Part shown: positions 14,690 to 61,944 of the stretch, in pieces
Numbering within the stretch: the stretch's first letter is position 1
Layout: the number at the start of each line of letters is the position of its first letter
DNA from: an uncultured Pseudomonadales bacterium
Lineage (GTDB): Bacteria > Patescibacteriota > Microgenomatia > UBA1400 > PJMF01
Assembly: GCA_964511345.1 (NCBI GenBank)
Contig: CAZEEV010000004.1
Span: 19,802-83,801 of the forward strand
Direction: 5' to 3'
DNA: 64,000 nucleotides
The notes under the pieces: generated by a model
The model's input: the letters and a program-made list of their open reading frames with translations, nothing else
What the model was told of the DNA's origin: nothing
The model's database searches: none
Position numbers and translations under genes: made by a program

Positions 14690-14690
14690 T

Positions 14691-15786: not shown

Positions 15787-16155
15787 ATGCCAAAAGACAA
15801 TAATCGTTACCAACTTTTAAATAATCTTGATTTGCTCACTCCGATTGCTGTGGATGATGGGGCCAATCTTAAATTTAGTCTTTATTTAAGGTCTAGAGAA
15901 ATGAGGGAAATTGTTTTAAATTTGGAAAAAGTAATGTTGAAGAAGAAAACTGAGCGTGACTTATTTGTGGCAGAAAACAAAACTTTTATTGATGCACTGA
16001 TGAAAACTTTCGTCGATGATTCCAACTTAACCTTGGAAGGCATGCAGATGGATCAAGAGACAGCGCAAATGTCTATGCAATTAGCTATGGATTTGCGTAA
16101 ATCCATTTCTTTGGTTAATGCGCTGTTTTACGGAGTTGAAGGCCTAAAGAGTTGA
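15787..16155 (+). CDS. Hypothetical protein (122 aa)
   Basis: ORF divergent from the tsaC-tsaE gene. No recognisable domain. Confidence 0.35.
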   Translation: MPKDNNRYQLLNNLDLLTPIAVDDGANLKFSLYLRSREMREIVLNLEKVMLKKKTERDLFVAENKTFIDALMKTFVDDSNLTLEGMQMDQETAQMSMQLAMDLRKSISLVNALFYGVEGLKS

Positions 16156-16256: not shown

Positions 16257-16682
16257 ATGCAAACTCTCAATATTAAGAAAATCCAACCAACTAAAGGTTA
16301 TGTTTTAGTTGAACCAGCCAAAGCTGAAGAGAAAACTGTCTCTGGCATTATTTTACCTGAGAATGAAAGTGAAAAACCCCAATATGGAGTAGTTTTAGCA
16401 GTTGGCGAGGCTTGTGATTGTGGAGATAGTTGCAGTTGCGAGGATGGTTGCGATTGCGGCTGCGGTTGCGAAGAGAAAAAAGAAACCGACGTTGCAAGAA
16501 CATATAAGAAACAAGTTAAAGAGAATTGGTCCTCTTGTAATTGCGACTCTTGTACCTGTGAAGCTCCAGTCAAAGTTGGTGACAAAGTCATTTATAAAAA
16601 ATGGGGTGGTAATGAATTCAAGATTGATGATATTGAGTATCAATTTTTAAAATTTGAAGATATTTTGGCAATTATTAAATAA
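16257..16682 (+). CDS. groES: Co-chaperonin GroES carrying a ~45-aa cysteine-rich (metallothionein-like) insertion in the roof-hairpin region
   Basis: N-terminus (KIQPTKGYVLVEP...SGIILPE...GVVLAVGEA) and C-terminus (VKVGDKVIYKK...EYQFLKFEDILAIIK) are canonical GroES. Between them lies CDCGDSCSCEDGCDCGCGCEEKKETDVARTYKKQVKENWSSCNCDSCTCEAP, with 14 Cys. Total 141 aa against the usual ~95. Confidence 0.8.
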   Translation: MQTLNIKKIQPTKGYVLVEPAKAEEKTVSGIILPENESEKPQYGVVLAVGEACDCGDSCSCEDGCDCGCGCEEKKETDVARTYKKQVKENWSSCNCDSCTCEAPVKVGDKVIYKKWGGNEFKIDDIEYQFLKFEDILAIIK

Positions 16683-44529: not shown

Positions 44530-44799
44530 ATGGCATTAGCAAAACAAGGCAAAGCTTCTATTATTAAAGACTTCGCTCTTTTTGAAGGCGACACTGGATC
44601 TCCAGAAGTACAGGTAGCTCTTTTAACCGCTTCCATCGAACAGTTAACCGAACACTTAAAATTACACAAGAAAGATAACCACTCTCGCAAGGGCTTGCTC
44701 AAACAAGTTTCCAAGAGACGTCGTTTACTCAATTTCTTGCTTTCCAGAAGTGAAGACAGATATCGTAAATTGATTGAAAAATTGGGTTTGAGTAAATAA
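44530..44799 (+). CDS. rpsO: 30S ribosomal protein S15
   Basis: 89 aa: [14 protein letters not shown]...[16 protein letters not shown]. Confidence 0.9.
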
Positions 44800-46589: not shown

Positions 46590-46739
46590 CATGCTATAAT
46601 AGCCCCATATTAATTAGGAAACTCAAGGAGGATTCTTGAGGATTCAAAAAAGATGAGAATAACTTCTCTTCTTTTCAGAATACTCGCTCCCTTTGAATTT
46701 CCAAAAACGCTCTTAATAAAAGAGCAAGAAAGTAAAAAT

Positions 46740-49067
46740 ATGTCTTATCCAAAGTATGGAAATACTTATAAGAAAGATCTTCTAGTGGGTGACAAAGTCA
46801 TTCATTTAGAAATTGGTAAATTTAGTGAACAGGTCAGCGCTGCTGTCTTGGCCACTTGTGGTGAAACCATCGTTCACACCACTGTTGCTTTGGGCAGAAG
46901 AGTCAATCTTGGCTACTTCCCATTATCAGTCGAATTTGTGGAAAAACTTTTCGCTGGTGGAATTATTAAAGGTTCTCGTTGGGTCAAACGTGATGGTCGC
47001 CCTACTGATGACAGCGTGCTTCGTGCTCGCGTGATCGATCGCACTATGCGTCCACTGTTCCCAGATGGAATTACTAATGAAGTGCAAGTCATCAGTACTG
47101 TTTTATCTTATGATGGTGAAAATGAGCCAGATATGATTGCTTTGGTAAGCACTGGTTTAGCGCTGCAAATTTCTGACATTCCTTTCGATGGTCCAGTGGC
47201 TGGAATGCGTTTTGGTTTAGATGAAAATAAACAATTCATCATTAACCCACTACGTAGCCAAATCGAAAAGAACGATTTAGATTTGATTGTTTCAGCTTCC
47301 AAGAATTCTATCGTTATGGTTGAAGCTGGTGCCAATGAAGTAGCTGAAGAAGTCATGATCGAAGCACTTTTAAAGGCTCAAGACGAAGCTACTAAGATTT
47401 GTGAACAGGTTGAAAGTATCGTCGCTGAAGTCGGCAAAGAAAAGCTTGTTTTGGTAGACGCTGAAGATCCAGAAAAAGTCGCTGCCAAGCAAGCCATTGT
47501 TGATCGTATGGCTAGTACTTACAAAAAAGAAATCAACGAGATGGTTAACAAAGAGGGTCGTTTAGAGCCAACTGGTTTGAAAGAATTAATCGCTCAAATT
47601 TTAGAAGAGGATAAAACCAAACTAGCCGAAGGCGAAGTCAGTGAATTAAACGAAGGAATGCTTAATGGTATTTTCCACGATTTAATGAAATCTGAAGCTC
47701 GTCGTATGATTCTAGAAGATGGTATTCGTCCAGATGGTCGCAATACCACCGAAATCAGACCAATCTGGTGTGAAGTTGATTTGCTACCTAGAGTTCATGG
47801 TAGTGCTATGTTCAAACGTGGCGCCACTCAAGCTTTGACAGTCGTCACTCTTGGTGATCCTTCTCTTGGACAATTAGTGGAAGACATGGCTGGTGAGCAA
47901 ACTCATCACTATTTCCACCACTATGACATGCCTCCATATGCTTCTGGTGAAGCTGGACGCATTGGTTATCCTAAGAGACGTGAAATTGGCCATGGTGCTC
48001 TCGCACAACGCGCCTTGATGCCTATGATCCCAAGTCAAGAAGTTTTCCCTTATACCATTCACGTGGTGAGTGAAATTATGTCTTCAAATGGTTCAACCTC
48101 TCAGGCTTCAGTTTGTGGTTCCACCATGGCTTTAATGGCCGCTGGTGTTCCAATCAAAAAACCAGTAGCAGGTATTGCTATGGGTTTGATGTCTGATGGC
48201 GAGAAACTTGTTGTCCTTTCAGATATTCAAGGCTTAGAAGATCACGTCGGTGATATGGACTTTAAAGTAGCTGGTACCAAGGAAGGCATCACTGCTATTC
48301 AAATGGATATTAAACTTAAGGGTATTCCAAAAGAAATTTTAGTTCAGGCTTTAGGTCAAGCTCGCGAAGGTCGCTTGCATATTATGGGCGAAATGATGAA
48401 ATGCATTTCAGAGCCAAGAACTTCTTTAAGTCCTTATGCTCCAAAAGTTGCTCAAATTACTATTCCAGCTGAAAAGATTGGTGCTGTGATTGGTTCAGGT
48501 GGCTCAGTGATTAAAGATATCATTGAAAAATCTGGTGCAGAAGTCAATGTCGAAGAAGACAAAGAAAACAAGACTGGTGTTATCAATGTGTCTTCTCCAG
48601 ATCAAGCTGCGATCGATAAAGCAGTTAAAATGATCGAAGACATTACTAGAGAAATCAACGTCGATGACGAATTTGATGGTACTATCACTCGTGTTGAGGG
48701 TTACGGCGCTTTCGTCGAATTCTTACCAGGACGTGAAGGCCTTGTGCATGTTTCCAACATGTCTTCTGAATATGTTAAAGACGCTAATGATCTTTATAAA
48801 GTTGGTGATAGCGTTCATGTTCGTGTCAAAGAATATAACCCAGAGGGTAAGATTGCTTTGACCATGCTAACCAAAGAACAAGAAGACGCCCAAAAAGCTG
48901 CCAAGGCTGCTCGCGGCGAAAGCGATGATAATGGTCGCGGTCGCAGTGGTGGCTACAATGGTGGCCGTCCAGCTTTTGGTAGTCGTGATGGCGACAGAGG
49001 TGGCGATCGTTATGAAAGACGTCCTTCCTTTGGAGGTCGTGATAACGGCGGCGGTAGAAGATATTAA
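46740..49067 (+). CDS. pnp: Polyribonucleotide nucleotidyltransferase (PNPase) with RGG/RG-rich C-terminal tail
   Basis: Two RNase PH domains, KH and S1 domains. C-terminal GRGRSGGYNGGRPAFGSRDGDRGGDRYERRPSFGGRDNGGGRRY. The MSYPKY start at 46740 is preferred over the ORF-track start. Confidence 0.9.
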   Translation: MSYPKYGNTYKKDLLVGDKVIHLEIGKFSEQVSAAVLATCGETIVHTTVALGRRVNLGYFPLSVEFVEKLFAGGIIKGSRWVKRDGRPTDDSVLRARVIDRTMRPLFPDGITNEVQVISTVLSYDGENEPDMIALVSTGLALQISDIPFDGPVAGMRFGLDENKQFIINPLRSQIEKNDLDLIVSASKNSIVMVEAGANEVAEEVMIEALLKAQDEATKICEQVESIVAEVGKEKLVLVDAEDPEKVAAKQAIVDRMASTYKKEINEMVNKEGRLEPTGLKELIAQILEEDKTKLAEGEVSELNEGMLNGIFHDLMKSEARRMILEDGIRPDGRNTTEIRPIWCEVDLLPRVHGSAMFKRGATQALTVVTLGDPSLGQLVEDMAGEQTHHYFHHYDMPPYASGEAGRIGYPKRREIGHGALAQRALMPMIPSQEVFPYTIHVVSEIMSSNGSTSQASVCGSTMALMAAGVPIKKPVAGIAMGLMSDGEKLVVLSDIQGLEDHVGDMDFKVAGTKEGITAIQMDIKLKGIPKEILVQALGQAREGRLHIMGEMMKCISEPRTSLSPYAPKVAQITIPAEKIGAVIGSGGSVIKDIIEKSGAEVNVEEDKENKTGVINVSSPDQAAIDKAVKMIEDITREINVDDEFDGTITRVEGYGAFVEFLPGREGLVHVSNMSSEYVKDANDLYKVGDSVHVRVKEYNPEGKIALTMLTKEQEDAQKAAKAARGESDDNGRGRSGGYNGGRPAFGSRDGDRGGDRYERRPSFGGRDNGGGRRY

Positions 49068-49127: not shown

Positions 49128-49530
49128 TTTATGAATATTTTGTTAGATCTAATACTATTTGAATCAGTTTAGCTAAATTAATCAAAATTATTGACCATTC
49201 TAGTAAATTGTTTTTCTTTTGTTTTTTAAACATAGGCCATTTACCCCTAAATAATAATTTATAAACTTCCAGTCCCTTGATAGGGGTTAGGCCTAAATAC
49301 AATTTTAGAGAGTGATTTTAGTTCAACACAATAGGCAGTTTTTAAATAAAAAGCTACACACCTCAAACAGACCGTAGAAGGAGCTGAAATAGAGGTTTGA
49401 TTTTTCAAATTGCATGGAACAGCGACTTCTCCGAATGAGACAAAGATTGTTTAATTTAATTAATAAACAGTTTTAGTTGAATGTGGCTTGATTGAGGTGC
49501 GTAGCTTTTGTATCGTGTATACTAATCTTT

Positions 49531-50397
49531 ATGCGCGTCAGTAATTTATTAGATTCTGCTGGTTTCATTGGTATTTTAGAACTTGATAATAATCGTGATT
49601 TAGCTGAGAGTTTGGGTTTGGATTTAACTTTGCAAGACAACACTCAATTATTAGATGAAATTAATAGTTATATTTTGCAATTAAGTAAAGAAGTGACTGG
49701 AGTGATTTATGATCCGATTTATACTTTTAAATTTTTATCCCAAAATAATCAACAGACCAGCGCTTTGATTCGTTTAGAACAAGATAGAGAAACTTTGCCA
49801 GATAGTTTGCCATTGTTATTTCCCAGCTTTAGTTTGGAAGAAATTAGCAGTAACTATGCTTTGGCTAAATTAGAATTAAATTATCATCCCAGAGAACAAA
49901 AGGCATTGGAAAAGAAACAATTATTGGCGGAAATCAGAGAATATTCAAAAATTCTTAACATAGATGTTTTACTGAAGCTAAATGTTTACGATCCTAATCA
50001 ATTACTTGTGCAAAAGGATGCGCAAATTAAGTTTTCTTTTGATGATGATCAATTGTTGGCAATTCAAGAATTAAGGTCTTTTAGTGACGTTCTAGTCATC
50101 CAAAATCCCTCTGATCCACTAGCAATGGCGACTATCATCAGTGAGTTGGATATTCCTTGTTTAATTATGGCTAATGAAACAGATAGCTATGAACAATTCA
50201 AAGATAAATTTCGCATGGCAATGGAGAATGGAGCCAAGGGTTATTGCTTGTCTCAAGTTTTGTGGCAAGAATTAAGTACTTATCGTCAAGAAAATCAAAG
50301 TTTAGATCTGACAAATATACAGAAATTTTTCCAAACCACTGTCAGAGATCGCTTGCTTGAACTTAATCGCATTGCTTCAGAAAGTCTAGCTTCATGA
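49531..50397 (+). CDS. Class I aldolase-like TIM-barrel protein, LacD (tagatose-1,6-bisphosphate aldolase)-like
   Basis: Segmental similarity to the LacD family (GFIGILELDNNRDL / ISALAFDQRGAL; VIYDPIY / ILLDPEYG; IDVLLKLNVYDP with candidate Schiff-base Lys; AMENGAKGYCLSQVLWQ / AAESGAKFNGVLCGRATW). The start is placed at an internal Met. Confidence 0.4.
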   Translation: MRVSNLLDSAGFIGILELDNNRDLAESLGLDLTLQDNTQLLDEINSYILQLSKEVTGVIYDPIYTFKFLSQNNQQTSALIRLEQDRETLPDSLPLLFPSFSLEEISSNYALAKLELNYHPREQKALEKKQLLAEIREYSKILNIDVLLKLNVYDPNQLLVQKDAQIKFSFDDDQLLAIQELRSFSDVLVIQNPSDPLAMATIISELDIPCLIMANETDSYEQFKDKFRMAMENGAKGYCLSQVLWQELSTYRQENQSLDLTNIQKFFQTTVRDRLLELNRIASESLAS

Positions 50398-51269
50398 AAA
50401 TAAGAAAAGCACTTATCACTTGTGCTGGCTTTGGGACTCGTTTTTTGCCTATTAGCAAAACCATTCAGAAGGAAATGCTACCTGTTTTAGATAGACCGAT
50501 CATTGATTATGTGGTGGAAGATTGTGTGAGAGCGGGTATTGAAGAAATAATTTTTGTAGTGAGCGAGTACAACCGCCAATTAGCGCACTTTTATAGTGAA
50601 AATCAGCGCATTCACAACTATTTAGTAGCAAATCAAAAACTAGATTTATATGAAAAAATTGCCAATTTACATACCAGGGCCAATTATCATTTCGTAAGAC
50701 AAAAAGATAGTGATCCTTATGGTACGGCTGTGCCAGTTATTTTAGCTAAAGATTATCTTAAAGATGAAGAAGCCTTTTTAGTTTTAATGGGTGATGATTT
50801 TATTTATCAACCTGGAGAAAGAAGCGAAATATCAATGATGGTTGAAGCCTTTGAAAAATCTCAAGCTAAAGGTTTAATTACCTGTATTGAAAGACCGACT
50901 GAGCTATTGCACAAATATGGAGTAATCAAAAGCAAAGTAGACGGTAACTTTAAATTTATGGAAGAAATTATAGAAAAACCAGCATTGGGTGAGGCACCGT
51001 CTAATTTAGCAAATATTAGTAAATATATCGTTGGTCCAGAAATTTGGCCGATTCTGGAGGGACAAAAAGCAGATCCTAAGTCTGGAGAATTTTATATAAC
51101 TGATACCATTCAAACTTTAGCCAAATCAGAAAAAGTGCTAGTTTATACCCCTCAAGGTGAATACTTTGATGGTGGCTATTTACTTGGTTGGTTGCTCGCT
51201 AATTTAAGAATTGCCAAAGATCAGCCAGAACTTTGGTCAGAGATAAAAAACTTTGTAAATCAAGCTTGA
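50394..51269 (+). CDS. galU: UTP--glucose-1-phosphate uridylyltransferase
   Basis: KALITCAGFGTRFLPISK nucleotidyltransferase motif. 4-nt overlap with the upstream gene. Confidence 0.8.
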   Translation: MKIRKALITCAGFGTRFLPISKTIQKEMLPVLDRPIIDYVVEDCVRAGIEEIIFVVSEYNRQLAHFYSENQRIHNYLVANQKLDLYEKIANLHTRANYHFVRQKDSDPYGTAVPVILAKDYLKDEEAFLVLMGDDFIYQPGERSEISMMVEAFEKSQAKGLITCIERPTELLHKYGVIKSKVDGNFKFMEEIIEKPALGEAPSNLANISKYIVGPEIWPILEGQKADPKSGEFYITDTIQTLAKSEKVLVYTPQGEYFDGGYLLGWLLANLRIAKDQPELWSEIKNFVNQA

Positions 51270-51332
51270 TTTAAATAAACATATAGATTACTATCTATAT
51301 GTAATTAACATTAATCAGTAAAGGATTTACTT

Positions 51333-51962
51333 ATGCATCAGTTAGCCAATTTACCCTATGCTTATGAAGCTTTAGAGCCATATTTTGATCAAGCAACTAT
51401 GAAGCTTCATCATGACAAACATCATCAAGCTTATTTAGACAAATTCAATGCGGCTTTAGCTGATTATCCACAGTTAGCAGCTATGCCAGCAGAAGATTTG
51501 CTTTGGCAGTTTGCAGATTTAGCTAAACAAAATGTACCAGCAGATATTCAAACTGCACTTAAAAATCATGGCGGCGGCTACGTACACCACAATATTTTGT
51601 GGGAAACTTTGTCGCCCAGCGGACCGAGAGAGGCAGTTGGCGAACTAGCCGCCGCCATCTCTTCACAATTTACTTCTTTTGCTGCATTTAGACAGCAATT
51701 CACAGATTTAGCTTCAAAGCATTTTGGAGCTGGTTGGGCGTGGTTGGTTTTAGACGAAAATAAACAATTAGCCATGTATTCATTACCCAATCAAGACTCA
51801 CCGCTACTTAAGCAACATTACCCGCTGATGGGGATTGATGTTTGGGAACATGCTTATTATTTGAAATACCAAAACCGTCGTCCAGAATATTTGAAAGCAG
51901 TTTGGCAAGTTCTCGATTGGCAAAAAATTGCAGAGCGCTATCAGCTGGCTTTGAATAAATAA
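51333..51962 (+). CDS. sodA: Fe/Mn superoxide dismutase
   Basis: LPYAYEALEPY...HHDKHHQAYL...DVWEHAYY. Confidence 0.9.
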   Translation: MHQLANLPYAYEALEPYFDQATMKLHHDKHHQAYLDKFNAALADYPQLAAMPAEDLLWQFADLAKQNVPADIQTALKNHGGGYVHHNILWETLSPSGPREAVGELAAAISSQFTSFAAFRQQFTDLASKHFGAGWAWLVLDENKQLAMYSLPNQDSPLLKQHYPLMGIDVWEHAYYLKYQNRRPEYLKAVWQVLDWQKIAERYQLALNK

Positions 51963-52007
51963 TTTTAAAGAAATCATAGACTTTGCTGATAAATTGTTTT
52001 AGTATGT

Positions 52008-52598
52008 TTGTTTATGCTCGAAGTTATTCTCGACGTTGAAACCAAGCAGATTTTTGATGATGTTGGTGGTTATTTTCCTGAGAAGTTGGGGATTTCTTTT
52101 GTGGGAGTTTGTGTGCGTAGCGATCGTTCTCAAAAAGGTGAGATGCAATCTTATTTTGAAAAGGATTTGCCCAAATTATTTCCTCTTTTAGAAAGAGCGG
52201 ATGTAGTAGTTGGTTTCAATATTGATGGCTTTGATATGCCGACTTTTATTCCTTATTATCAAGCGGATATTAGTCGCATTCCCACTTTGGACGTCATGGA
52301 TCGTATTAAAAAAAGCACTGGTCATCGCATTGGCCTCGATGCAGTAGCCAAAGAAACTTTAGGATCTGGTAAAAGTGGCGATGGTTTGGATGCGATTAAG
52401 TATTATAAATCCGGTAACTTCGAAGCCTTGGAAAAGTACTGTTTGCGTGACGTTGAAGTCACCAGGGATGTTTATGATTATGGTTTGAAAAATGGCAAAG
52501 TGAAATTTCGCAATAAATGGAATCGTTTAATTGAAGCACCAGTTGATTTTTCTTTTGTTAGCTCCAAAGCCAATGGCACACAAATGAGTCTGATATAA
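52008..52598 (+). CDS. RNase H-fold 3'-5' exonuclease, PolB-exonuclease-domain-like (YprB-like)
   Basis: ILDVET...GFNIDGFD ... YCLRDVEVT motif arrangement resembles the DEDDy exonuclease family related to PolB proofreading domains. Confidence 0.45.
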   Translation: MFMLEVILDVETKQIFDDVGGYFPEKLGISFVGVCVRSDRSQKGEMQSYFEKDLPKLFPLLERADVVVGFNIDGFDMPTFIPYYQADISRIPTLDVMDRIKKSTGHRIGLDAVAKETLGSGKSGDGLDAIKYYKSGNFEALEKYCLRDVEVTRDVYDYGLKNGKVKFRNKWNRLIEAPVDFSFVSSKANGTQMSLI

Positions 52599-52607
52599 TC
52601 CATTGGA

Positions 52608-53156
52608 ATGATTCCTAAAATTTGTTTAACAGCCTCAGCCCATTTGATTTATCAAGAAAAGATTCTTTTGATTAAGCATAAAAAGCTAAATAAATGGCTT
52701 AGTCCTGGTGGACATATCGACGAAAACGAACTTCCTCATTTTGCAGCAGAAAGAGAATTTTTAGAAGAAACTGGACTTAAAGTTAAAGTTTACAGCGCTT
52801 ATGAAAAGTTATCTGATTTTTCAAATGATCAGGATTCATTTCATCCATTGCCTTTTGCCATCAATGAACATTGGATTTGTAAAGAAAATTATGAAAGACG
52901 TTTATCTGCTCAAAAAAATGAAAAAAACTTTACTCCTCATAATTTGTGGCCAAAAGGTTGTGAAAAACACTTAAATTTTTGTTATCTAGTCAAGCTAGTT
53001 GGTCCTTTAGAAATTCAGCCACAAGAGGGTGAATCTAGGGAAATTTCTTGGTTTTCTTTAGTTGATTTAAAAGAAAAATATAAAAAAGAAATGTTGCAAG
53101 ACGTTTTTAAAGAATCAATTAAGGCTTTTGAACTTGCCAAGCTAAACCATTCTTGA
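52608..53156 (+). CDS. NUDIX hydrolase
   Basis: Nudix box SPGGHIDENELPHFAAEREFLEETGL. Confidence 0.75.
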   Translation: MIPKICLTASAHLIYQEKILLIKHKKLNKWLSPGGHIDENELPHFAAEREFLEETGLKVKVYSAYEKLSDFSNDQDSFHPLPFAINEHWICKENYERRLSAQKNEKNFTPHNLWPKGCEKHLNFCYLVKLVGPLEIQPQEGESREISWFSLVDLKEKYKKEMLQDVFKESIKAFELAKLNHS

Positions 53157-53168
53157 GAGAATAAAATT

Positions 53169-53678
53169 ATGTTTATCAAAAATCAATTAACCGAAAATGT
53201 GAAACTTTTACAAAAAGCAGCCATTTTGCGCGAAGGAGAATTTGGTGCAGAAGTTTTGCTTTTAAAACGTAGCGCAAATTCTTTTTCTAGACCTTCTTGT
53301 TGGGATTTACCTGGAGGAAATAGTGAATGGCCAGATCAAAATCAAGCATCTTCCGCTAATCTTCATTTAGGAGACATTAAAAGAGAGATTTTTGAAGAAA
53401 CTTCCTTAGTAATAGATACAAATACTTTAAATTTAAATAAATTGGCGCATTTCTCTACATATTTTGATCAAGAGAAACAAATCTTTTCCATTATTTGTGG
53501 TTGGTTAATTAATTATGATGCAACCAATCAAAATGAGATTAAAATTTCTGATGAGCATCAGGAACAAGCTTGGGTTAAAGAAGCTGATCTAGTTAATTAT
53601 GATTTCGGTGGTGTTAAAGGTACTTTTGTTTTAGACATCATTAAGCAAGCTTTCATAAAATTTAAAAATTATTCATGA
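53169..53678 (+). CDS. NUDIX hydrolase (divergent)
   Basis: LPGGNSEW...GDIKREIFEETSL, a degenerate Nudix box. Confidence 0.55.
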   Translation: MFIKNQLTENVKLLQKAAILREGEFGAEVLLLKRSANSFSRPSCWDLPGGNSEWPDQNQASSANLHLGDIKREIFEETSLVIDTNTLNLNKLAHFSTYFDQEKQIFSIICGWLINYDATNQNEIKISDEHQEQAWVKEADLVNYDFGGVKGTFVLDIIKQAFIKFKNYS

Positions 53679-54265
53679 AATTTTTAGTTGCTTCCAAAAA
53701 TCCTGTCAAAATTAATGCCGTCGCCCATGCTATTAAGGATTTTTTTCCAAACTCCGCAGTTAAAGGTTTAGAAGTAAACAGCGGTGTATCTGCTCAACCA
53801 ATGAGCGATGAGGAAACTAAACAAGGCGCTTTTAATCGTGCAGAAGCAATTCGTTCTTTTGCTTTGAAACAAAAATTAATTAATGCTAATGAGGACGTTT
53901 TATGTATAGGTTTAGAGGGGGGAGTTTTTCAACCTTCTTTTGCGCAGAATGATCAAGAGCTTTGGTCAACTGTTTGGGCAGTTGCCATCGATAAAAACAA
54001 TCAAAGCTATTTTAGTAATGGAGCACGTTTTCCCTTGCCAGAGTTTCTAACTAAGTTGTTATTATCTGGTGAAGAAATGGGTCCTGTTTTGGGTAAACAT
54101 TTAAATGATCCTGATTTACGTAAAAAAGCAGGTATGATCGGTTTTTTAACTAATAATTTTACCAATCGTACTGATGAATATGAAAACATTGCCAAGGTCG
54201 CCATCGGTCTCTGGTATAAAGTTTATAAAGAAAATATTGGTCCAGACTGTGACTTGACAAAGTAA
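53675..54265 (+). CDS. Inosine/xanthosine triphosphatase (YjjX family non-canonical NTP pyrophosphatase)
   Basis: MKFLVASKNPVKINAV ... VNSGVSAQPMSDEETKQGAFNRA aligns with E. coli YjjX. Overlaps the upstream gene by 4 nt. Confidence 0.65.
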   Translation: MKFLVASKNPVKINAVAHAIKDFFPNSAVKGLEVNSGVSAQPMSDEETKQGAFNRAEAIRSFALKQKLINANEDVLCIGLEGGVFQPSFAQNDQELWSTVWAVAIDKNNQSYFSNGARFPLPEFLTKLLLSGEEMGPVLGKHLNDPDLRKKAGMIGFLTNNFTNRTDEYENIAKVAIGLWYKVYKENIGPDCDLTK

Positions 54266-54301
54266 AACTTTCTCGGCAAAATGGGATCATAGTATTACTT
54301 A

Positions 54302-54823
54302 TTGCAAGGAAATATGTCAAAAAAACTGCAAAGTCTTCTCCCTTATCTTTTTCCACTTATTGCCGTCATTTTGGTAGTAGTGATGTTCGCTCGCTGGTAT
54401 AAAGGTAAAACCGCTGATGCTCCAGTTAGTTTACTAGATTCACAATTAGAGGTAGAAAGCCTACCAGCTCAAATGCAAGATAGCATTATCAAAGGAGCTA
54501 CTGATTATAAAATGCTAAATATGGTTGGTGTCGATCAAGCTGTTGGAGAATTGCGTTACCAAATTAAAGATGACAAATTAAGTTTTACTGTGACTGCTAA
54601 TTTACCAAATGCCAAAGAAGATTATGCTGTTTGGTTATCAAATATGGATGGAGCAGCTAAAAAGAGAGTTTTTAACCTGAAATATTCTAAGGCTGGTTAT
54701 GTAGGCAGTGCTATGGTTTCTGATGATATTTTGCCAGTAAAAGTTTTGGTGAGTAAGGCCTCTGATTTAATGTTGGAAGACATTTTGTTGCAGGCAGAAA
54801 TTCTTGTGCCAGAGACAAATTAA
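54302..54823 (+). CDS. N-terminally anchored or secreted hypothetical protein (173 aa)
   Basis: A single N-terminal hydrophobic helix, then a soluble domain. Confidence 0.4.
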   Translation: MQGNMSKKLQSLLPYLFPLIAVILVVVMFARWYKGKTADAPVSLLDSQLEVESLPAQMQDSIIKGATDYKMLNMVGVDQAVGELRYQIKDDKLSFTVTANLPNAKEDYAVWLSNMDGAAKKRVFNLKYSKAGYVGSAMVSDDILPVKVLVSKASDLMLEDILLQAEILVPETN

Positions 54824-54981
54824 AGTAAGTTTTTGACTTGTTTTGATGTACATTGATATATAAAACTTGAAATTGCTTCTTGATTAGCTAGTCAAGTGTG
54901 CTAATCTAAAAGCAGACTTAAATAATAAGTCTATTAATAAAAATTATTCTCTATGATTCATAGAGAAAGAAGGGTTACCAT

Positions 54982-55185
54982 ATGGCTAGTGCCTATAGTT
55001 ACACAAACTCCAAAGGTCAGACCTATTACCTTCACACCAGAGACGTCACCTTGAAGAATGGTAGAGTTCAAACCATCTACTTCTTCGCTCGCGATGTCCG
55101 TGATGGTTCTTTAAGTGCTGTACCAGCTGCTTACCAAGTAGTTGAAACCAGCAGAACTGGCATGCCAGTTTTGAAGAAGAAGTAA
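54982..55185 (+). CDS. Small conserved-looking hypothetical protein (67 aa)
   Basis: Strong RBS (gaaagaagggttaccatATG) and a strong intrinsic terminator immediately downstream. The sequence is beta-rich and non-repetitive. Confidence 0.45.
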   Translation: MASAYSYTNSKGQTYYLHTRDVTLKNGRVQTIYFFARDVRDGSLSAVPAAYQVVETSRTGMPVLKKK

Positions 55186-55211
55186 TCTCTTTTACTTTTT
55201 TGTGAAAAAAT

Positions 55212-55238
55212 AGCCCCGCTTAAACGCGGGGCTTTTTA
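55212..55238 (+). terminator. Rho-independent terminator
   Basis: agccccgc-ttaaac-gcggggct followed by ttttt. Confidence 0.7.
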
Positions 55239-55263
55239 TTGCCTATAATGTTATATTAAAGCT

Positions 55264-55725
55264 ATGAAAATTTATTTAGGCAGTGATCATGGAGGTTTTG
55301 AACTCAAAGAAAAATTTAAGGAATATATTGGTCGCAATGATCAAACTTTAGAGATAGAAGATTGCGGTGCTTTTATCAATGATCCTGCAGATGATTATCC
55401 ACCAATTGCTTTTCGTGTTGCAGAAAAAGTTGTAGCTGATTTAGCTACTGATAGCTTGGGAGTTTTACTGTGTCGTTCTGGTTCCGGCGTAGTGATTGCA
55501 GCTAATAAGGTTAAAGGTGTCAGAGCGGTGGAACTTTATAATGAAAAAATTGCTGCTCATGCTAAGAGCCATAATCATGCTAATATGATTGCTTTTAGTG
55601 GCGATCAATTATCTCTTACAGAAATGATCAATTTGTTTGAGATTTTTATCAAAACCCCTCAAGATTCAAATGATAGACATGAACGTAGAATTAGGCAAAT
55701 TATAAATTACGAAAATCAAAAATAA
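55264..55725 (+). CDS. rpiB: Ribose-5-phosphate isomerase B
   Basis: MKIYLGSDHGGFELKE N-terminus of the RpiB/LacAB family. Confidence 0.8.
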   Translation: MKIYLGSDHGGFELKEKFKEYIGRNDQTLEIEDCGAFINDPADDYPPIAFRVAEKVVADLATDSLGVLLCRSGSGVVIAANKVKGVRAVELYNEKIAAHAKSHNHANMIAFSGDQLSLTEMINLFEIFIKTPQDSNDRHERRIRQIINYENQK

Positions 55726-55740
55726 TCTAAAAAAGGAACA

Positions 55741-56409
55741 ATGAACTTAGACGTTAGCGCCAATGTTTTGACTGGCAATTTAGAACTAGCCAAAAAACAA
55801 ATTGAATTGGCTAAGAGCACAAATTTATTAGAGGCGATTCAAATCGATATTGTTGATGGAGTTTTTGCAGATAATCATACTTTTACTCCTCAAGATTTGG
55901 TGGATATAGATTTTGGCGATTTGCAAATTGATTTTCATTTAATGACCGAGGAACCAATGGATTATGTATGGGAGCTTGAGGAATACTGTCGTCATTTGCC
56001 AATTAGGGCAGTTTTCGGACAGATTGAAAAAATGACTTACCAAGAAGCTTTTTTGGAAGAAGTGAAAAAACAAGAATGGCGAGCTGGCTTGGCTTTGAAT
56101 TTGTTTACCCCCATTGAATCAATTGATGAAAATAGTTGGGAATGGATGGATGTAGTACTACTTTTAGGAGTTGAAGCTGGTGCTTCTGGTCAACAACAGA
56201 GTCCATTTTTATTTGACAAAATTCATGCTGTTAGAGAAAAAATTCTCAAAGGTGAGCCAATGAAAATTTTTATTGATGGTGGAGTTAATCAGCAAAATAT
56301 TGAACAATTACAAAGAAGTGGAGTCGATGGCGTGACAGTTAATTCTGCCTTTAACAACGCCGTAAATTACAAACAAGCTGTGGAGGAATTCTTGTCTTAT
56401 GTCAAATAA
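55741..56409 (+). CDS. rpe: Ribulose-phosphate 3-epimerase-like TIM barrel
   Basis: IQIDIVDGVFADNHTF and IDFHLM motifs correspond to the MDG-F-x-N and DxHLM motifs of Rpe. Confidence 0.55.
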   Translation: MNLDVSANVLTGNLELAKKQIELAKSTNLLEAIQIDIVDGVFADNHTFTPQDLVDIDFGDLQIDFHLMTEEPMDYVWELEEYCRHLPIRAVFGQIEKMTYQEAFLEEVKKQEWRAGLALNLFTPIESIDENSWEWMDVVLLLGVEAGASGQQQSPFLFDKIHAVREKILKGEPMKIFIDGGVNQQNIEQLQRSGVDGVTVNSAFNNAVNYKQAVEEFLSYVK

Positions 56410-57019
56410 AAAAGTTTCTATTCCTAAAGCTAACCATTTTTATAGAATCAATAAAATTGCTTTTTATGGTAGTGCTGATTTAAGTGAGACTGACCCAATT
56501 TATGAAGCTGCCTATGAGGCTGCTAAATATGTAGCCAAAAAAGGCAAAACAGTCATTAATGGTGGCGGTCCGGGAGTCATGGAGGCTGCGACCAAAGGTG
56601 CCAAAGCTGGTAAAGGCAAAACTCTAGTAGTGACTTTTTATCCAGAAAACTTGCCAGAATTTGAAGGTCGAGCTGAACAAAATGTCGCAGATAAAGAGAT
56701 TAAAACAGCTAATTATATCGAAAGAATGTTTAGTTTAATGGACAATGCAGATTTGTTTGTTTGTTTCAAAGGCGGAACTGGAACTCTCAGTGAATGGGCG
56801 ACTGCTTGGTTATTGGCTCATCTTTATTATGGCAACCACAAGCCATTAATTTTGTATGGTGATTTTTGGCATGAATTTATGGATGTGGTGCACAAACATT
56901 TTTTAATTGGTTATAAAGAAGCTCAGGTTTATCGCATCGTAAATAGTTTAGAAGAATTTAAAATAGCTTTGCGTATTTTTGAAGAGGAAATGTCAGCTCG
57001 TCGCTTGAAATTGACTTAA
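56399..57019 (+). CDS. LOG-family (TIGR00730) Rossmann-fold nucleotide-binding protein / putative nucleotide 5'-monophosphate nucleosidase
   Basis: GGGPGVMEA and KGGTGTLSE motifs. Confidence 0.7.
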   Translation: MSNKKVSIPKANHFYRINKIAFYGSADLSETDPIYEAAYEAAKYVAKKGKTVINGGGPGVMEAATKGAKAGKGKTLVVTFYPENLPEFEGRAEQNVADKEIKTANYIERMFSLMDNADLFVCFKGGTGTLSEWATAWLLAHLYYGNHKPLILYGDFWHEFMDVVHKHFLIGYKEAQVYRIVNSLEEFKIALRIFEEEMSARRLKLT

Positions 57020-57036
57020 CTTTTAAGTTAAGATGA

Positions 57037-57993
57037 ATGAAAGAAAGTCTGCCCATTATGTTTGATATTATTTCTATCGGCTCTTCACTTTTGGATATTT
57101 TTATCAGATCCGATGATTTGGAAGCTGATCGTGATGGTGATCGTCAAATTTTGACTTATGGCGATAAATTAGAGTTATCTGATTTTCAAATTGTCACTGG
57201 TGGTGGTGCTAGTAACACTGCCGTAGCCTTTGCTCGCTTGGGTTTACATGCGGCTGTTATTTCAGAAACTGGTCGCGATGCTTTTGCTAGTTTGATCACA
57301 GATGATTTTCAAAAAGAAGGTGTTGCCACTAATTTATTGATTCAAGAAAAATTGGAAAAAACTGGAGGTTCTGTGGCCTTGGTGGCTAAAAATGCCGAGC
57401 GAGTTATCATGGTACATCGCGGGGCTGCTTCCATGTTGGATCCATTTGATATTCCGGCTTTTTGGTTAGTGAAAAGTAAATGGATACACCTATCTAGTAT
57501 TGGTGGTAATGTGGAAACTTTGGCTAAAATTTTTAAAATTTTAAACAACAATCAAACCACCAAAATGTCTTGGAATCCTGGCAAAAAAGAGCTGCAGTTG
57601 TTACTCGAAGAAAATTTTGAAATAGCTAAAATTCCTTGTGAAATCTTTTTCGTTAATCAGGAAGAATGGGCAATGATTGAACCTTTGCATGAAGAAATTC
57701 TTCTTAACTTTCCTCAAGTAGTAATTACTAAGGGCAAAGCAGGCGGAGAAGTGCATACTTTTGGTAAAAAAACTTTTGAATTTGTGGGTGAAGCTGAATC
57801 GTTTACAGATAGCACTGGAGCTGGTGATGCTTTTGCAGCTGCTTATACAGCGGCTATTCTAGATGGTTGCGATGTTGCGACTGCTATCACCTGGGGTGTT
57901 AAGAATGCAGGTAATGTAGTAGCTTATTTTGGAGCAAAATTAGGTTTGTTGCGTAAAACCCAAATTTTAGAGTTAACAAAGACCAAAAATTAG
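57037..57993 (+). CDS. PfkB-family carbohydrate/nucleoside kinase (ribokinase-like)
   Basis: TGGGASNTAVAFARLG and DSTGAGDAFAAAY (the PfkB signatures). Confidence 0.75.
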   Translation: MKESLPIMFDIISIGSSLLDIFIRSDDLEADRDGDRQILTYGDKLELSDFQIVTGGGASNTAVAFARLGLHAAVISETGRDAFASLITDDFQKEGVATNLLIQEKLEKTGGSVALVAKNAERVIMVHRGAASMLDPFDIPAFWLVKSKWIHLSSIGGNVETLAKIFKILNNNQTTKMSWNPGKKELQLLLEENFEIAKIPCEIFFVNQEEWAMIEPLHEEILLNFPQVVITKGKAGGEVHTFGKKTFEFVGEAESFTDSTGAGDAFAAAYTAAILDGCDVATAITWGVKNAGNVVAYFGAKLGLLRKTQILELTKTKN

Positions 57994-58012
57994 TGTTTAA
58001 TAGATTAGCTAT

Positions 58013-58519
58013 ATGAAAAAACTATTTTTTCTTTTATCTTTTTTGTCGTTTGCCTTTTTATTTGCAGGTACAGCTCGCGCTTTGGAATTAACTAAAATGG
58101 GAACCACAGACCTAACTGGTAAAGGGATAGGTTCAACTGTGTCAGCTTATACTTACAATTTACGTTCTTTTAGTCTTTATGGTTTAGCGACAGCATCTAG
58201 CTCAGTAGCTATTAAGATTGATGACGTGACTTACAACGCTACGGCCAATGCAGCCGGTGAGTGGTCTACCTATTTATCTAATTTAACTTATGACGACCAC
58301 ACTGCCGTGATTAGCGCTCCAAGTCAGACGAGTTTAAATTTTACTTTGACTATTAGCTCTGCTTCGGCTACTACAGCCTCTACTCCAACTGTTACGCCTA
58401 CTTTAGCCACTACTACTAGCACTTTACCTAGTGCTGGCACTACAGAGAATACTTTTGTGATTTTTGCCCTGGCTTTGCTGTCCCTTGGACTGGGCGTGGC
58501 AATTAAATATAGAGATTAA
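58013..58519 (+). CDS. Secreted cell-surface protein with Ser/Thr-rich stalk and sortase-like C-terminal sorting signal (LPSAG + hydrophobic helix + KYRD)
   Basis: N-terminal signal peptide (LSFLSFAFLFAGTARA), T/S-rich linker, and a C-terminal LPSAGTTENTFVIFALALLSLGLGVAIKYRD. Confidence 0.5.
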   Translation: MKKLFFLLSFLSFAFLFAGTARALELTKMGTTDLTGKGIGSTVSAYTYNLRSFSLYGLATASSSVAIKIDDVTYNATANAAGEWSTYLSNLTYDDHTAVISAPSQTSLNFTLTISSASATTASTPTVTPTLATTTSTLPSAGTTENTFVIFALALLSLGLGVAIKYRD

Positions 58520-58530
58520 TTTTTATAACT

Positions 58531-59589
58531 ATGTCAGATTTTCGCGAACTTCTCAATCAAGAGATTGCTGCTTTGTCAGCAAAAATTGAGCAGGGGGAAT
58601 TGCCTGATGAAATGCGCTATCAATTAAAAAAAGAGGTAGTCGCCTTAGAACGTAGTGTGGAATTAGGTAATTACGACGAGAAATACGAAAAAGTTTCTCG
58701 TTACATAGACTGGTGTTTACGCATCCCTTTTGGTAAAAAAACAGAAGACACGTTAGATGTAGCTAAAGCTCAAGAAATTTTCGATCGATATCATTACGGG
58801 ATGCAAGAAGTGAAAAATCGTTTTTTGGAATATTTAGCGGTACTTAACTTGCAGAAAAGTAATTTTCAGGATGAACAGTTTTCTGCTCCGATTTTGTTTT
58901 TAGTAGGATTAGTGGGAACGGGTAAGACAACCTTTGCTTATTCTTTAGCCGAAGCTTTGGGTCGTAAATTGGTGCGTATTCCTTTTGGTGGTATGGGTAG
59001 CGCTAAAGAACTAAGAGGTAGCTCGCGTTTATTGCTTGGTTCTGAGCCAGGAAAAGTGCTTAAAGGTGTTTGTGAAGCCGGGGTGATGAATCCGATTATT
59101 TTGCTTGATGAAATTGACCGTGCTACTGATGACGCCAATATGGACATCATGGGTGTTTTAGTTGAGTTGTTAGATCCTGCTCAAAATCATGCTTTTACTG
59201 ATGACTACATTAATTATCCGATTGATTTATCTCAAACAATTTTTCTAGCTACTGCCAATAACACTCGTAAAATCGCTACGGCAGTTATGGATCGTATGGA
59301 AAAGATTGACATGCCTTCTTACACTGATGAAGAAAAAGTTGTTATTGCTAAAAAGTACGTGATGCCTCAAGTTTTGAAAGAAGTAGGCTTAAAGCCAGAA
59401 CAGTTTGTGATTCATGAAGAAATGTGGCCCAAAATGGTTCGTCCATTAGGTTTTGATGCAGGTATTCGTACGCTGCAGCGCACTATTCAAGGTGCGGCTC
59501 GTAAGGCAGCACGCATCATTGTTGAGGGTAAGTACGACAAGGTGGAAATTGGTCCAGACAATTATAAAATTTTCCTGCCATCTTACTAA
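58531..59589 (+). CDS. Lon-derived AAA+ ATPase lacking both the N-terminal LON substrate-binding domain and the C-terminal S16 protease domain
   Basis: Aligns to the Lon region from the pre-AAA helix through the AAA+ alpha-subdomain (DRYHYGMQEVKNRFLEYLAV, Walker A GLVGTGKTTFAYSLA, Walker B ILLDEID, VLVELLDPAQNHAFTDDY, DRMEKIDMPSYT). It ends at 352 aa, just before where the Ser-Lys protease domain would begin. Confidence 0.7.
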   Translation: MSDFRELLNQEIAALSAKIEQGELPDEMRYQLKKEVVALERSVELGNYDEKYEKVSRYIDWCLRIPFGKKTEDTLDVAKAQEIFDRYHYGMQEVKNRFLEYLAVLNLQKSNFQDEQFSAPILFLVGLVGTGKTTFAYSLAEALGRKLVRIPFGGMGSAKELRGSSRLLLGSEPGKVLKGVCEAGVMNPIILLDEIDRATDDANMDIMGVLVELLDPAQNHAFTDDYINYPIDLSQTIFLATANNTRKIATAVMDRMEKIDMPSYTDEEKVVIAKKYVMPQVLKEVGLKPEQFVIHEEMWPKMVRPLGFDAGIRTLQRTIQGAARKAARIIVEGKYDKVEIGPDNYKIFLPSY

Positions 59590-59615
59590 GTTTTTTCTTG
59601 GTATAATCTTTTTTA

Positions 59616-60239
59616 ATGTATTTTACTGATTTAAACACACTCAAAACTGATCTAGAAAAAAATTTTCAAAAGTTTCCCCTAGTAGAAAAAGTAACAGATT
59701 TGGTTCATGGTGAAGGCAATGAGTCAGCTGACGTCATGTTGATTGGTGAGGCACCTGGCTATTATGAAAGCGTTGAACGAAGGCCATTTGTTGGTCGATC
59801 AGGACAACTCTTGCGTAAAGTTTTAGCAGAAAGCGGTTTGCAGGCAAGTCAAGTTTACATTAGCAATATTATTAAAGTTAGACCTCCGGATAACCGCGAT
59901 CCGCTTCCTCATGAAATTTTAGCCTTCAAACCTTATTTAGATGCGGAAATTGACCTGATTAAGCCAAAATTAATTGTCACTTTAGGTCGTTTTAGTATGG
60001 CTAAATTTTTGCCAGATGTAAAAGTTTCTCAAGTACATGGACGCTTACATAAAATCAAGTGGAATGACAGAACTCTTTTCATTTTGCCAATGTATCATCC
60101 AGCAGCTGCTTTGCGAGCGACAAAAATCAAAGAGTCTTTTGTCAATGATTTTGCTAAAATTGAGAAGATCATTGCTTTTGTACAAACATCCAAAGACAAC
60201 GAAGTTTTTAAAGAAACTGTTAAAGAAGCTTTGTTATGA
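59616..60239 (+). CDS. Uracil-DNA glycosylase, family 4
   Basis: MLIGEAPGYYESVERRPFVGRSGQLL, the family 4 UDG motif A region. Confidence 0.8.
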   Translation: MYFTDLNTLKTDLEKNFQKFPLVEKVTDLVHGEGNESADVMLIGEAPGYYESVERRPFVGRSGQLLRKVLAESGLQASQVYISNIIKVRPPDNRDPLPHEILAFKPYLDAEIDLIKPKLIVTLGRFSMAKFLPDVKVSQVHGRLHKIKWNDRTLFILPMYHPAAALRATKIKESFVNDFAKIEKIIAFVQTSKDNEVFKETVKEALL

Positions 60240-60270
60240 AGATTATTAAAACAAGAAAGTAAAAAAAATT

Positions 60271-61944
60271 ATGATGGAAAATATGAACAAATTAAAACTT
60301 CTCCCACTGGGTGGTATGGGCGGCGTTACTCAAAACATGTATCTTTATCAATATGAAGAAGAAATTTTACTGGTGGACTGTGGTATTGGTTTTCCAGATA
60401 TGTACATGCCAGGAGTGGATACTTTGATTCCAGATATTACTTATTTACAAGATCAGTTGGAAAAAGGTGCCAAGATTGTTGGTATGATTCTGAGTCATGG
60501 TCATGACGATCACATTGGGGCTCTGCCTTATTTGTTAGATGAATTACCAGTATTTCCAATTTATGCTTCTCCGCTGACAGCTGGTTTTGCGCGAGATCGT
60601 CTTTTGGATAAAAAACTTGACCGAGAGATTAAAGTAGCACCTGATAAAGAAATGATTCAAATTGGTCAGTATTTTTCTTTTGAATTAATTGCCATGACTC
60701 ATTCGGTGCCGGATACGCGCCATATCGTGATTCAAACCCCAGTGGGTAGAATCTATCACGGCAGTGATTTTAAGCTTGATAAGTCTCCAGTAGATGGAGT
60801 GTTATCAGATCTTGATGAAGTAAAAAGAGTGGCTGATCAAGGAATTTTGTTAGGCTTAATTGATTGTTTGCGAGTAGAACAAGAAACTTGGACCAAGTCT
60901 GAATCTTCCATCAAATTATCACTTGAAGAAGAAATGGCGAATGTTAAAGGTAAAATCTTGGTGACCCTGATGAGTTCACACATTCACCGTATTCAGCAAG
61001 TCATTGATGTTTGTGAACAAATTGGTCGCCAAGTAGTTTTTGTTGGTCGCAGTGTAGAACAAAATGTCGTAGCAGCTACTTTGCTCAAAAAGCTTCATAT
61101 TAAACCGGGGACACAGGTAGATAAAAATCATATTAGTGAAGTGCCAGATAGTCGCTTATGTATAATCATCGCTGGTAGTCAGGGACAGGAGGGTTCTTCG
61201 CTAGTGCGAGCCGTTTACGGCGAGCACAGAATTATTCAGATTGCTCCAGAAGACAAAGTGATTTTTTCCGCTAATGTGATTCCTGGCAATGAGATTAACT
61301 ATTATGCAGCTATTGATGAATTATCTGCTAATAATGTGGATGTAGTTTATCCAGAAATTAATCATGGTATTCATGCTTCTGGTCACGCTAGTAGTCCTGA
61401 ACAAAAAGAACTTGCTCAGCTTTTACAAGCCAAGTACTTGATGCCCATTGGTGGTGCTGATCGTCATCGCGCATTTTTTGAGAAAAGAGTAGCTGAGGCT
61501 CTGAATTATGATCATCGCCATGTTTTATTGCCTAAATCTGGAGAAGTCTTGGGTTTTGATGAAACTGAAGTCAAAGTGATTGATGAGGTTTTGCTCAATG
61601 CTAAAGCAGTTGATGGTCTAGGCATTGGTGATGTCGGTCCAGTGGTTTTGTCTGATCGTTTATCACTTTCCAAAGCTGGAATCATCGTTTTGGTTATTCC
61701 CAGAATTGCTGGAGAATTCGATTTTATGGAAATGAAAGTGGTTTCTAGAGGTTTTGTCTTTATGAAAGAGGCTGATGAAGTAATCCAATTTATCAAGCAA
61801 AAGACCGCTGAAATTGTTGGTGAAGAAAAGCAAAAAATCAAAGATGATGAATTGAAGAAAAAAATCGAGCGCCGTTTGGCAAAGAAACTTTACAAGGTCA
61901 TTCGTCGAGAACCCATCATCGTTCCAGTCTTTATCGAAATGTAA
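60271..61944 (+). CDS. rnj: Ribonuclease J (metallo-beta-lactamase / beta-CASP)
   Basis: LSHGHDDHIGALPYL (HxHxDH), beta-CASP motifs and a C-terminal domain. 557 aa. Confidence 0.85.
   Translation: MMENMNKLKLLPLGGMGGVTQNMYLYQYEEEILLVDCGIGFPDMYMPGVDTLIPDITYLQDQLEKGAKIVGMILSHGHDDHIGALPYLLDELPVFPIYASPLTAGFARDRLLDKKLDREIKVAPDKEMIQIGQYFSFELIAMTHSVPDTRHIVIQTPVGRIYHGSDFKLDKSPVDGVLSDLDEVKRVADQGILLGLIDCLRVEQETWTKSESSIKLSLEEEMANVKGKILVTLMSSHIHRIQQVIDVCEQIGRQVVFVGRSVEQNVVAATLLKKLHIKPGTQVDKNHISEVPDSRLCIIIAGSQGQEGSSLVRAVYGEHRIIQIAPEDKVIFSANVIPGNEINYYAAIDELSANNVDVVYPEINHGIHASGHASSPEQKELAQLLQAKYLMPIGGADRHRAFFEKRVAEALNYDHRHVLLPKSGEVLGFDETEVKVIDEVLLNAKAVDGLGIGDVGPVVLSDRLSLSKAGIIVLVIPRIAGEFDFMEMKVVSRGFVFMKEADEVIQFIKQKTAEIVGEEKQKIKDDELKKKIERRLAKKLYKVIRREPIIVPVFIEM

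Follow-up and report, generated by a model that had tools for sequence, protein, structure and literature searches.

A conserved stand-alone Lon-type AAA+ ATPase of the Patescibacteria with neither LON N-domain nor protease domain

The gene and its product

The stretch of DNA analyzed here, 64 kb of contig CAZEEV010000004.1 and referred to throughout as the window, has a low GC content (~36%) and is densely packed with housekeeping genes, as is typical of a genome of the Patescibacteria, or candidate phyla radiation (CPR). It contains the complete gene of a Lon-type AAA+ ATPase that stands alone, with neither the N-terminal LON domain nor the S16 Ser-Lys protease domain of the Lon proteases. 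The gene and the elements it encodes are set out below; conservation, here and later, is that found in an alignment of 218 family members from three CPR classes.

58531..59589, + strand: stand-alone Lon-type AAA+ ATPase gene, complete, with ATG start; 352 aa, 39.9 kDa, pI 5.3
58531..58866, + strand: helical region, counterpart of the LonA three-helix bundle (the C-terminal part of HI(CC)) with the linker to the nucleotide-binding domain, aa 1-112
58906..58929, + strand: Walker A, G-L-V-G-T-G-K-T, aa 126-133; family signature GLxGxGKT
59017..59052, + strand: pore-loop 1, G-S-S-R-L-L-L-G-S-E-P-G, aa 163-174; aligned without gaps to RGHRRTY[IV]GAMPG
59095..59112, + strand: Walker B, I-I-L-L-D-E, aa 189-194; D193 and E194 100% invariant
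59257..59295, + strand: sensor-1 N243 through arginine finger R255, both 100% invariant
59317..59586, + strand: Lon-type lid (alpha subdomain), aa 263-352; Pfam Lon_lid; carries sensor-2 R313 (59467-59469)

Two domains are recognized by Pfam in the 352-aa protein, AAA at aa 123-259 (E=2e-16) and Lon_lid at aa 283-335 (E=5e-9); there is no match to Lon_C (PF05362) or LON_substr_bdg, nor to anything else noteworthy. The alignment with the LonA equivalog model of NCBIfam (TIGR00763, 'lon') is confined to profile positions 253-570 of 795. Its score of 310 bits is about half the curated whole-protein cut-off of 608, and that of NF008053 (230 bits) likewise falls short of its cut-off of 891. The solved structure closest in sequence is that of Bacillus subtilis Lon (3m6a, E=2e-70, query residues 10-348), while a 344-residue fragment of Escherichia coli Lon (6n2i) matches residues 11-348 and PDB entries of isolated Lon alpha subdomains match aa 261-348. 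The similarity to Lon begins at aa 10-11, equivalent to position 253 of TIGR00763 and residue 245 of MtaLonA, and the long coiled-coil part of HI(CC) and the N-terminal LON domain are absent, the match beginning at about residue 245-253 of Lon.

The AlphaFold model (pLDDT 77, pTM 0.71) has the expected helices and strands, with helices at residues 2-21, 26-45, 48-64, 77-87 and 92-111 in the N-terminal region, and the best 50 matches listed by Foldseek for this model are all Lon AAA+ modules. A Lon-type AAA+ module with a Lon lid and the preceding three-helix bundle is therefore identified by Pfam, the PDB and Foldseek alike. In the alignment there is no LonB-type membrane-anchoring insertion relative to LonA, and there is no protease domain of B-type or hybrid form. 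The fragment in 6n2i, EcLon(235-584), is a stable product of limited proteolysis that comprises the three-helix bundle and the AAA+ module (PMC6722904), and the window protein is therefore its natural equivalent. An earlier preliminary description, made from the sequence of the window, had the similarity to LonA running only from the helix before the AAA+ module through the alpha subdomain, and these comparisons bear it out. The gene product is confirmed as the LonA three-helix bundle and AAA+ module without the N-domain and the S16 domain. Among the PADLOC anti-phage models there are weak generic AAA matches alone (17-34 bits), and the gene context is one of housekeeping.

We looked for the missing domains elsewhere in the sequence with two profiles, one for the Lon protease domain and one for the Lon N-region, both made from 92 canonical Lons. 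In the six frames of the window the best matches were at the level of noise, at E=6.5 for the protease profile and E=1.0 for the N-region profile, and the same profiles run over 655 kb from 95 related loci gave nothing at E<=0.01. Thus the absence of the S16 domain and of most of the LON N-domain, already noted in the preliminary description, holds for every frame of the window, and neither there nor at the 95 loci does another frame encode S16 residues. The gene is separated by 11 nt from its upstream neighbour and by 26 nt from a downstream gene of the uracil-DNA glycosylase superfamily (UDG), so that there is no space for a missing domain. A weak tblastn match of one Lon_C query, at 45173-45403 (E=6e-4, for one of the 92 queries), was rejected; it lies inside a coiled-coil protein and has no support from the profile search. 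The only other AAA+ protease gene within the window is ftsH (24930-26870), and there is no peptidase gene linked to the Lon-type ATPase gene in the 3-10 kb flanks of the 95 loci.

The protein ends in a conserved tail, N-x-K-I-F-L-P-x-Y, located where the linker of Lon to its protease domain starts. In the Microgenomates the C-terminus is fixed as N-x-K-x-[FY]-[LIM]-P-x-[YW], the last residue being aromatic in 62 of 79 loci; in the Dojkabacteria and other distant members the tail varies. The tail has a partial counterpart in Lon itself, N-L-x-D-[FY]-[LI]-G, where the linker begins. The protease domain has therefore been lost cleanly, at a domain boundary.

Conservation of the family and its ATPase motifs

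The protein belongs to a family of some size. By word-indexed search we obtained 120 clusters with identities of 67-100%; 117 of them are 351-356 aa in length and the other three 325, 358 and 438 aa; those that are named are from Patescibacteria, Woesebacteria or Pacebacteria, entered as 'AAA family ATPase' or 'Lon protease'. From a scan of species-representative genomes 80 loci were kept, with 46-75% identity, distributed over Woese-, Shapiro-, Ames-, Collier-, Gottesman-, Davies- and Curtissbacteria, other Microgenomates and WWE3. The scan gave 590 confirmed stretches, yet only the 80 inspected loci are counted as members since one of the two search peptides, NP[VI]ILLDEI, is also found in ordinary Lon. 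The reading frame could be traced in 79 of the 80, and the stop codon always lies 0-6 residues past the last residue of the query. With a profile of the more distant members a further branch came to light, 351-548 aa in length and again without Lon_C, whose named members are Candidatus Dojkabacteria. Across Microgenomates, WWE3 and Dojkabacteria, homologues of 351-470 aa end at one and the same point of the linker. Members are thus known from the Dojkabacteria and, in the Microgenomates group, from 80 or more genomes at species level, and the family would offer a natural system in which to study the function of the Lon AAA+ module. The preliminary description had allowed that the relatives might be full-length Lons, and they are not; the approximately 240 that are listed are all 325-548 aa long and none has Lon_C. 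We considered whether the longer members have extra domains, and rejected this; their N- and C-terminal extensions are low-complexity sequence rich in Q, P and S, without a Pfam or Lon match.

When 90 modules were compared by neighbour joining, the family came out as a single clade (bootstrap 99/100), distinct both from canonical LonA and from the AAA+ modules of Lons that have them in tandem. Lons of this last kind, which are divergent, were the top matches of the exhaustive search; in them two or three consecutive AAA+ modules, every one with a Lon lid of its own, lead into one S16 domain. They are not of the family of the window protein. An example is P0121 (1113 aa, named Candidatus Dependentiae); others include P0122-P0128, P0131, P0133-P0135, P0137 and P0138, and there are none in the window. 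The two AAA+ modules of P0126 are near-identical, and this one may be an assembly artefact. The window protein could have been a free form of such an extra module, but this is ruled out; those modules have GPPGVGKT, most of their pore loops are Lon-like, and their mean distance from the family, 1.44, exceeds that of canonical Lon, 1.22.

The gene is under very strong purifying selection. Measured against two close relatives with 94% and 88% identity, dN/dS is 0.029 and 0.046, respectively, and each of five neighbouring genes has a higher value, in the range 0.04-0.18. The protein is thus shown to be intact, strongly selected, monophyletic and without a peptidase. We are in little doubt that it is a functional protease-less derivative of Lon, and our best reading is that in one branch of the Patescibacteria, that of Microgenomates, WWE3 and Dojkabacteria, it has become a core housekeeping protein. 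The record titles of the metagenome-assembled genomes (MAGs) from which loci L014-L093 come look unreliable as taxonomy. Many of these loci carry a gene string of Patescibacteria type under such titles as 'uncultured Pseudomonadales bacterium', 'uncultured Gammaproteobacteria bacterium', 'Candidatus Bathyarchaeia archaeon' or 'Candidatus Methanoperedens sp.'.

The motifs of the ATPase are firmly fixed. In Walker A residues G126, G129, G131, K132 and T133 are invariant, as is the sensor-2 arginine R313 throughout the 218 members, and a D-P-x-Q-N segment is invariant or nearly so. The Walker A, Walker B, sensor and arginine-finger regions had been described at the outset as intact, and they prove to be so throughout the members aligned. 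As judged by its sequence, the protein has kept all the residues needed to bind and hydrolyze ATP, with both Walker motifs, the sensor-1 Asn, the arginine finger and the sensor-2 Arg in place, and it is predicted to be a competent AAA+ ATPase. The context of Walker A is diagnostic, GLxGxGKT in the family and GPPGVGKT in Lon.

The pore loops are a different matter. The pore-loop-1 motif is near-uniformly RRTY[IV]GAMPG in canonical Lons, and this has become SRLLLGSEPG at aa 165-174 of the window protein, with the substrate-gripping tyrosine replaced by Leu168. Position 168 is the least conserved column among those examined, its commonest residue occurring in 16% of members and an aromatic residue in 32%. 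The positions that follow read [DEG]-[AS]-E-P-G, with Glu172 in 96%. Pore loop 2 reads xDIMG; the Trp, Phe or Met of Lon is absent and the hydrophobic position is unconserved in the family. In MtaLonA Tyr397 and Trp431 touch the translocating substrate and are needed for degradation (PMC8503904). The Lon signature for translocation, an aromatic residue in pore loop 1 and a hydrophobic one in pore loop 2, is thus not found in the window protein. So relaxed a pore loop argues against a classical threading unfoldase. Neither the change in pore loop 1 nor the conserved pnp and rnj context of the gene featured in the preliminary description.

Gene neighbourhood

The genes around the Lon-type ATPase that recur in the discussion are as follows.

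46653..49067, + strand: PNPase gene (pnp), context; ~9.5 kb from the Lon-type ATPase gene in the window
58013-58519, + strand: gene of a 168-aa secreted, sortase-anchor-like protein, 11 nt upstream of the Lon-type ATPase gene
59616..60239, + strand: uracil-DNA glycosylase superfamily (UDG) gene, 26 nt downstream; a frequent, inconstant neighbour
60271..61944, + strand: RNase J gene (rnj), context, downstream

In the clade of the window the genes run in the order RpiB, RPE, SLOG, PfkB, (surface protein), Lon-type ATPase, UDG, RNase J, FtsK. Of 76 informative loci, 69 have RNase J downstream and on the same strand, immediately adjacent in 34 and with UDG between in 17. On the other side PNPase is the immediate upstream neighbour in 47 of the 80 genome loci, with a median gap of 59 nt. 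In two Dojkabacteria genomes the arrangement is nusA-infB-x-rpsO-pnp, then the Lon-type ATPase gene, (NUDIX), UDG and, farther on, rnj. The same string can be followed in the window, through nusA (41579), infB (42846), rpsO (44530) and pnp (46653), with the Lon-type ATPase gene farther on. From 55264 to 61944 none of the intergenic gaps holds a strong terminator. The Lon-type ATPase is probably co-transcribed with genes of RNA turnover, pnp upstream in most lineages and rnj downstream. The string of rpsO, pnp, the Lon-type ATPase gene, (UDG), rnj and ftsK is old. A pnp ... rnj-ftsK string is also present in Actinobacteria, where it is not known to include a Lon-like gene; Rv2783c ... Rv2752c-Rv2748c of Mycobacterium tuberculosis is an example of nusA-infB-rpsO-pnp ... 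rnj-ftsK of this kind. The position of the gene may therefore be merely inherited.

The block of ~9.5 kb that lies between pnp and the Lon-type ATPase gene (49492-58519) is peculiar to the clade of the window, the two genes being adjacent in most other Microgenomates, WWE3 and Dojkabacteria. It contains genes for an NTP-transferase, an Fe/Mn-SOD, two NUDIX proteins, an NTPase, RpiB, RPE, a SLOG/LOG-like protein, PfkB and the surface protein. The last is the 168-aa protein directly upstream. Its N-terminus resembles a signal peptide, it gives a weak Ig-like match, and at its C-terminal end the motif LPSAG precedes a hydrophobic stretch and then KYRD, an arrangement that looks like a sortase-type cell-wall anchor. 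It is the fastest-evolving of the neighbours (dN/dS 0.08-0.18), and many related loci lack it. A gene for a 542-aa K/E-rich coiled-coil-like protein without a Pfam match (44899-46527, + strand) is inserted between rpsO (44530-44799) and pnp, and in the Dojkabacteria a different unannotated gene of 420-442 aa lies between infB and rpsO. A close relative with 88% identity (L095) has a 70-aa C-terminal fragment of RNase J (6036-6248) in place of the full rnj, which could be a disrupted gene or a problem of assembly.

Two further genes of the window deserve mention. A 369-aa open reading frame (14691-15800, - strand) fuses a Sua5/YciO/YrdC (TsaC-like) domain with TsaE, two components of t6A synthesis, and is adjoined by tsaD (13556-14734). 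A GroES homologue (16257-16682, + strand) has 141 aa compared with a profile length of 93, and its match to Cpn10 in two stretches suggests an insertion.

Function of the Lon-type ATPase and comparison with known systems

What would such a protein do? We suggest that it descends from a LonA that lost its N-domain and, by a precise deletion, its S16 protease domain. The arginine finger that acts in trans and the sensor-2 residue are invariant, and ATP would therefore probably be hydrolyzed where subunits meet in an oligomeric ring, which is presumably hexameric. The pore-1 aromatic and pore-2 hydrophobic positions are unconstrained, so the conserved function is most likely not processive threading. 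The relaxed pore loop and the invariant catalytic residues together would predict hydrolysis of ATP without processive threading; bound client proteins would be remodelled non-processively, in a chaperone or assembly activity, and not be threaded into a protease chamber. We put at about even the chance that the protein is an ATP-driven, ring-forming, non-proteolytic remodeller, chaperone or assembly factor. The proposed activity would be comparable to the protease-independent activity known for Lon; a chaperone activity of this sort is associated with Lon/Pim1.

A number of points weigh against this proposal. Tyr or Phe is kept at the pore position in about one third of the members, and the clade of the window has a conserved Leu-Leu-Leu there, so that weak threading could occur. 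The LonA ring is held largely by its protease domains, and a ring without these P domains is an assumption. In substrate-free EcLon the protomers make no contacts between residues 245-493 (PMC8244335); on the other hand EcLon(235-584) and MtaLon(207-492), both fragments without P domains, show hexameric packing in their crystals (PMC6722904). Elsewhere in the genome there may be a partner peptidase or a second, complete Lon, our survey having covered the flanks of the loci. A protease partner acting in trans, or a link to RNA decay, is possible.

These last possibilities come together in a more general alternative, that the protein is a dedicated lineage-specific partner of another machine, either as the ATPase in an RNA degradosome of the CPR, acting together with PNPase and RNase J, between whose genes it has kept its place in three classes, or as half of a hitherto unseen two-component Lon-type protease that docks through its fixed aromatic tail; taken as a whole we think this distinctly less probable than the stand-alone remodeller. 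As half of a protease it would dock on a separate peptidase (an orphan S16, ClpP, HslV or other) or co-assemble with a full-length Lon encoded elsewhere, and deliver substrates in the manner of ClpX or HslU. In most lineages the C-terminus is fixed to the residue, with its aromatic end, and it resembles the docking tails of other AAA+ partners, of which the C-terminus of HslU and the HbYX motifs are examples. Yet the terminal aromatic is not retained in the Dojkabacteria and other distant members, and part of the tail motif is inherited from the linker of Lon. No peptidase gene is linked at any of the loci surveyed, the window holds FtsH alone, which has its own ATPase, and the pore-loop aromatic required for threading is unconstrained. 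We consider the two-component protease unlikely. Somewhat more doubtful still is a role as accessory ATPase of the RNA-decay machinery, acting on or with PNPase, RNase J or both, or on ribonucleoproteins, as a CPR-specific component of a degradosome. The gene order speaks for it, with pnp directly upstream in the 47 Microgenomates/WWE3 loci and in both Dojkabacteria loci examined and rnj following, an order that holds at 37-57% protein identity while other neighbours change. But the string is an old one in which the position could be inherited, and in the clade of the window 9.5 kb of unrelated genes intervene before the Lon-type ATPase gene. A gain of nucleic-acid binding was considered and rejected, as the charge is unshifted relative to Lon modules (mean family pI 6.4, compared with 6.8, and that of the query 5.3), and the fixed glutamate in the pore loop argues against threading of nucleic acid.

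The remaining explanations fare worse. UDG is the next gene downstream at many loci, that of the window included, the lid, with a pI of 9.2, is basic, and the alpha subdomain, to which the isolated PDB entries correspond, binds DNA in some Lons; one might thus imagine a DNA-binding or regulatory ATPase acting through its Lon lid and tied to DNA repair. We think this very improbable, given that UDG is absent between the Lon-type ATPase gene and rnj in at least 34 loci, that the basic residues of the lid are those already conserved in ordinary Lon, and that the protein as a whole is acidic. The preliminary description had offered as its alternative that the gene is a decaying remnant, a pseudogene of lon, and had proposed that selection be assessed in relatives. 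The truncated architecture itself, and nothing else, would favour decay, and the idea is refuted by a dN/dS of 0.03-0.05, by catalytic residues invariant in all members aligned and by the same length and ends across three CPR classes. A split or frameshifted lon, or an artefact of assembly with the protease domain next door in another frame, can be set aside with equal assurance; the six-frame searches with the Lon_C and Lon-N profiles refute it in the window and at the related loci, the gaps of 11 and 26 nt separate well-defined genes, and the same gene structure is found in independent assemblies from NCBI, ENA, JGI and Logan.

How should the family be named? There is no dedicated NCBIfam or Pfam model for a protease-less Lon ATPase family. 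In the literature we have found no description of a protease-less Lon AAA+ protein, although this absence is no proof that none has been published. Lon is defined as one chain that joins the ATPase to the protease, and by the published definition all Lons carry both domains (PMC9569914). With the S16 domain and the N-domain missing, the score cut-off unreached and the pore-loop signature absent, the window protein should not be filed as a Lon protease. The automated names given to family proteins (JGI) include 'ATP-dependent Lon protease', and reconstructions of CPR metabolism and proteostasis may therefore credit these organisms with a proteolysis that the gene cannot supply. More generally, a widespread family consisting of the motor alone shows that the AAA+ module can be selected in its own right.

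The closest known relative is LonA (MEROPS S16; TIGR00763), of which the three-helix and AAA+ part, as in 6N2I, has the same fold and boundaries as the window protein. LonA modules are 35-43% identical to it in sequence, and all the ATPase motifs and the DPxQN segment are common to both. The differences lie in the lack of the LON N-domain and of the Ser-Lys protease domain, in GLxGxGKT instead of GPPGVGKT, in the pore-1 and pore-2 grips that are unconstrained in the family with Glu fixed in pore loop 1, and in the separate clade.

Other systems bear comparison. LonC of Meiothermus taiwanensis is reported to be a Lon-like protease without ATP-powered unfolding (PMC3391209). Like the window protein it is a natural derivative of Lon in which one of two activities has been given up, and it is the reciprocal case, since LonC keeps the protease with a degenerate ATPase, where the window protein has an intact ATPase and no protease. 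Conceptually close are the plant FtsHi proteins (PMC8197885), relatives of an AAA+ protease that keep an essential ATPase-based function without proteolysis. They belong to another family and lineage, and they retain an inactivated protease domain, whereas that of the window protein has been deleted cleanly at the interdomain linker. The stand-alone unfoldases ClpX and HslU, which belong to the same HCLR clade of AAA+ proteins and dock on a separate peptidase, resemble it in their single AAA+ ring, which for the window protein is presumed, in the lack of a built-in peptidase and in a tail conserved at the C-terminus. Yet no IGF-type loop is identified in the window protein, no peptidase gene is adjacent and the pore-loop aromatic is unconserved in its family. 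ClpX and HslU, by contrast, are encoded next to their peptidases, in clpP-clpX and hslVU operons.

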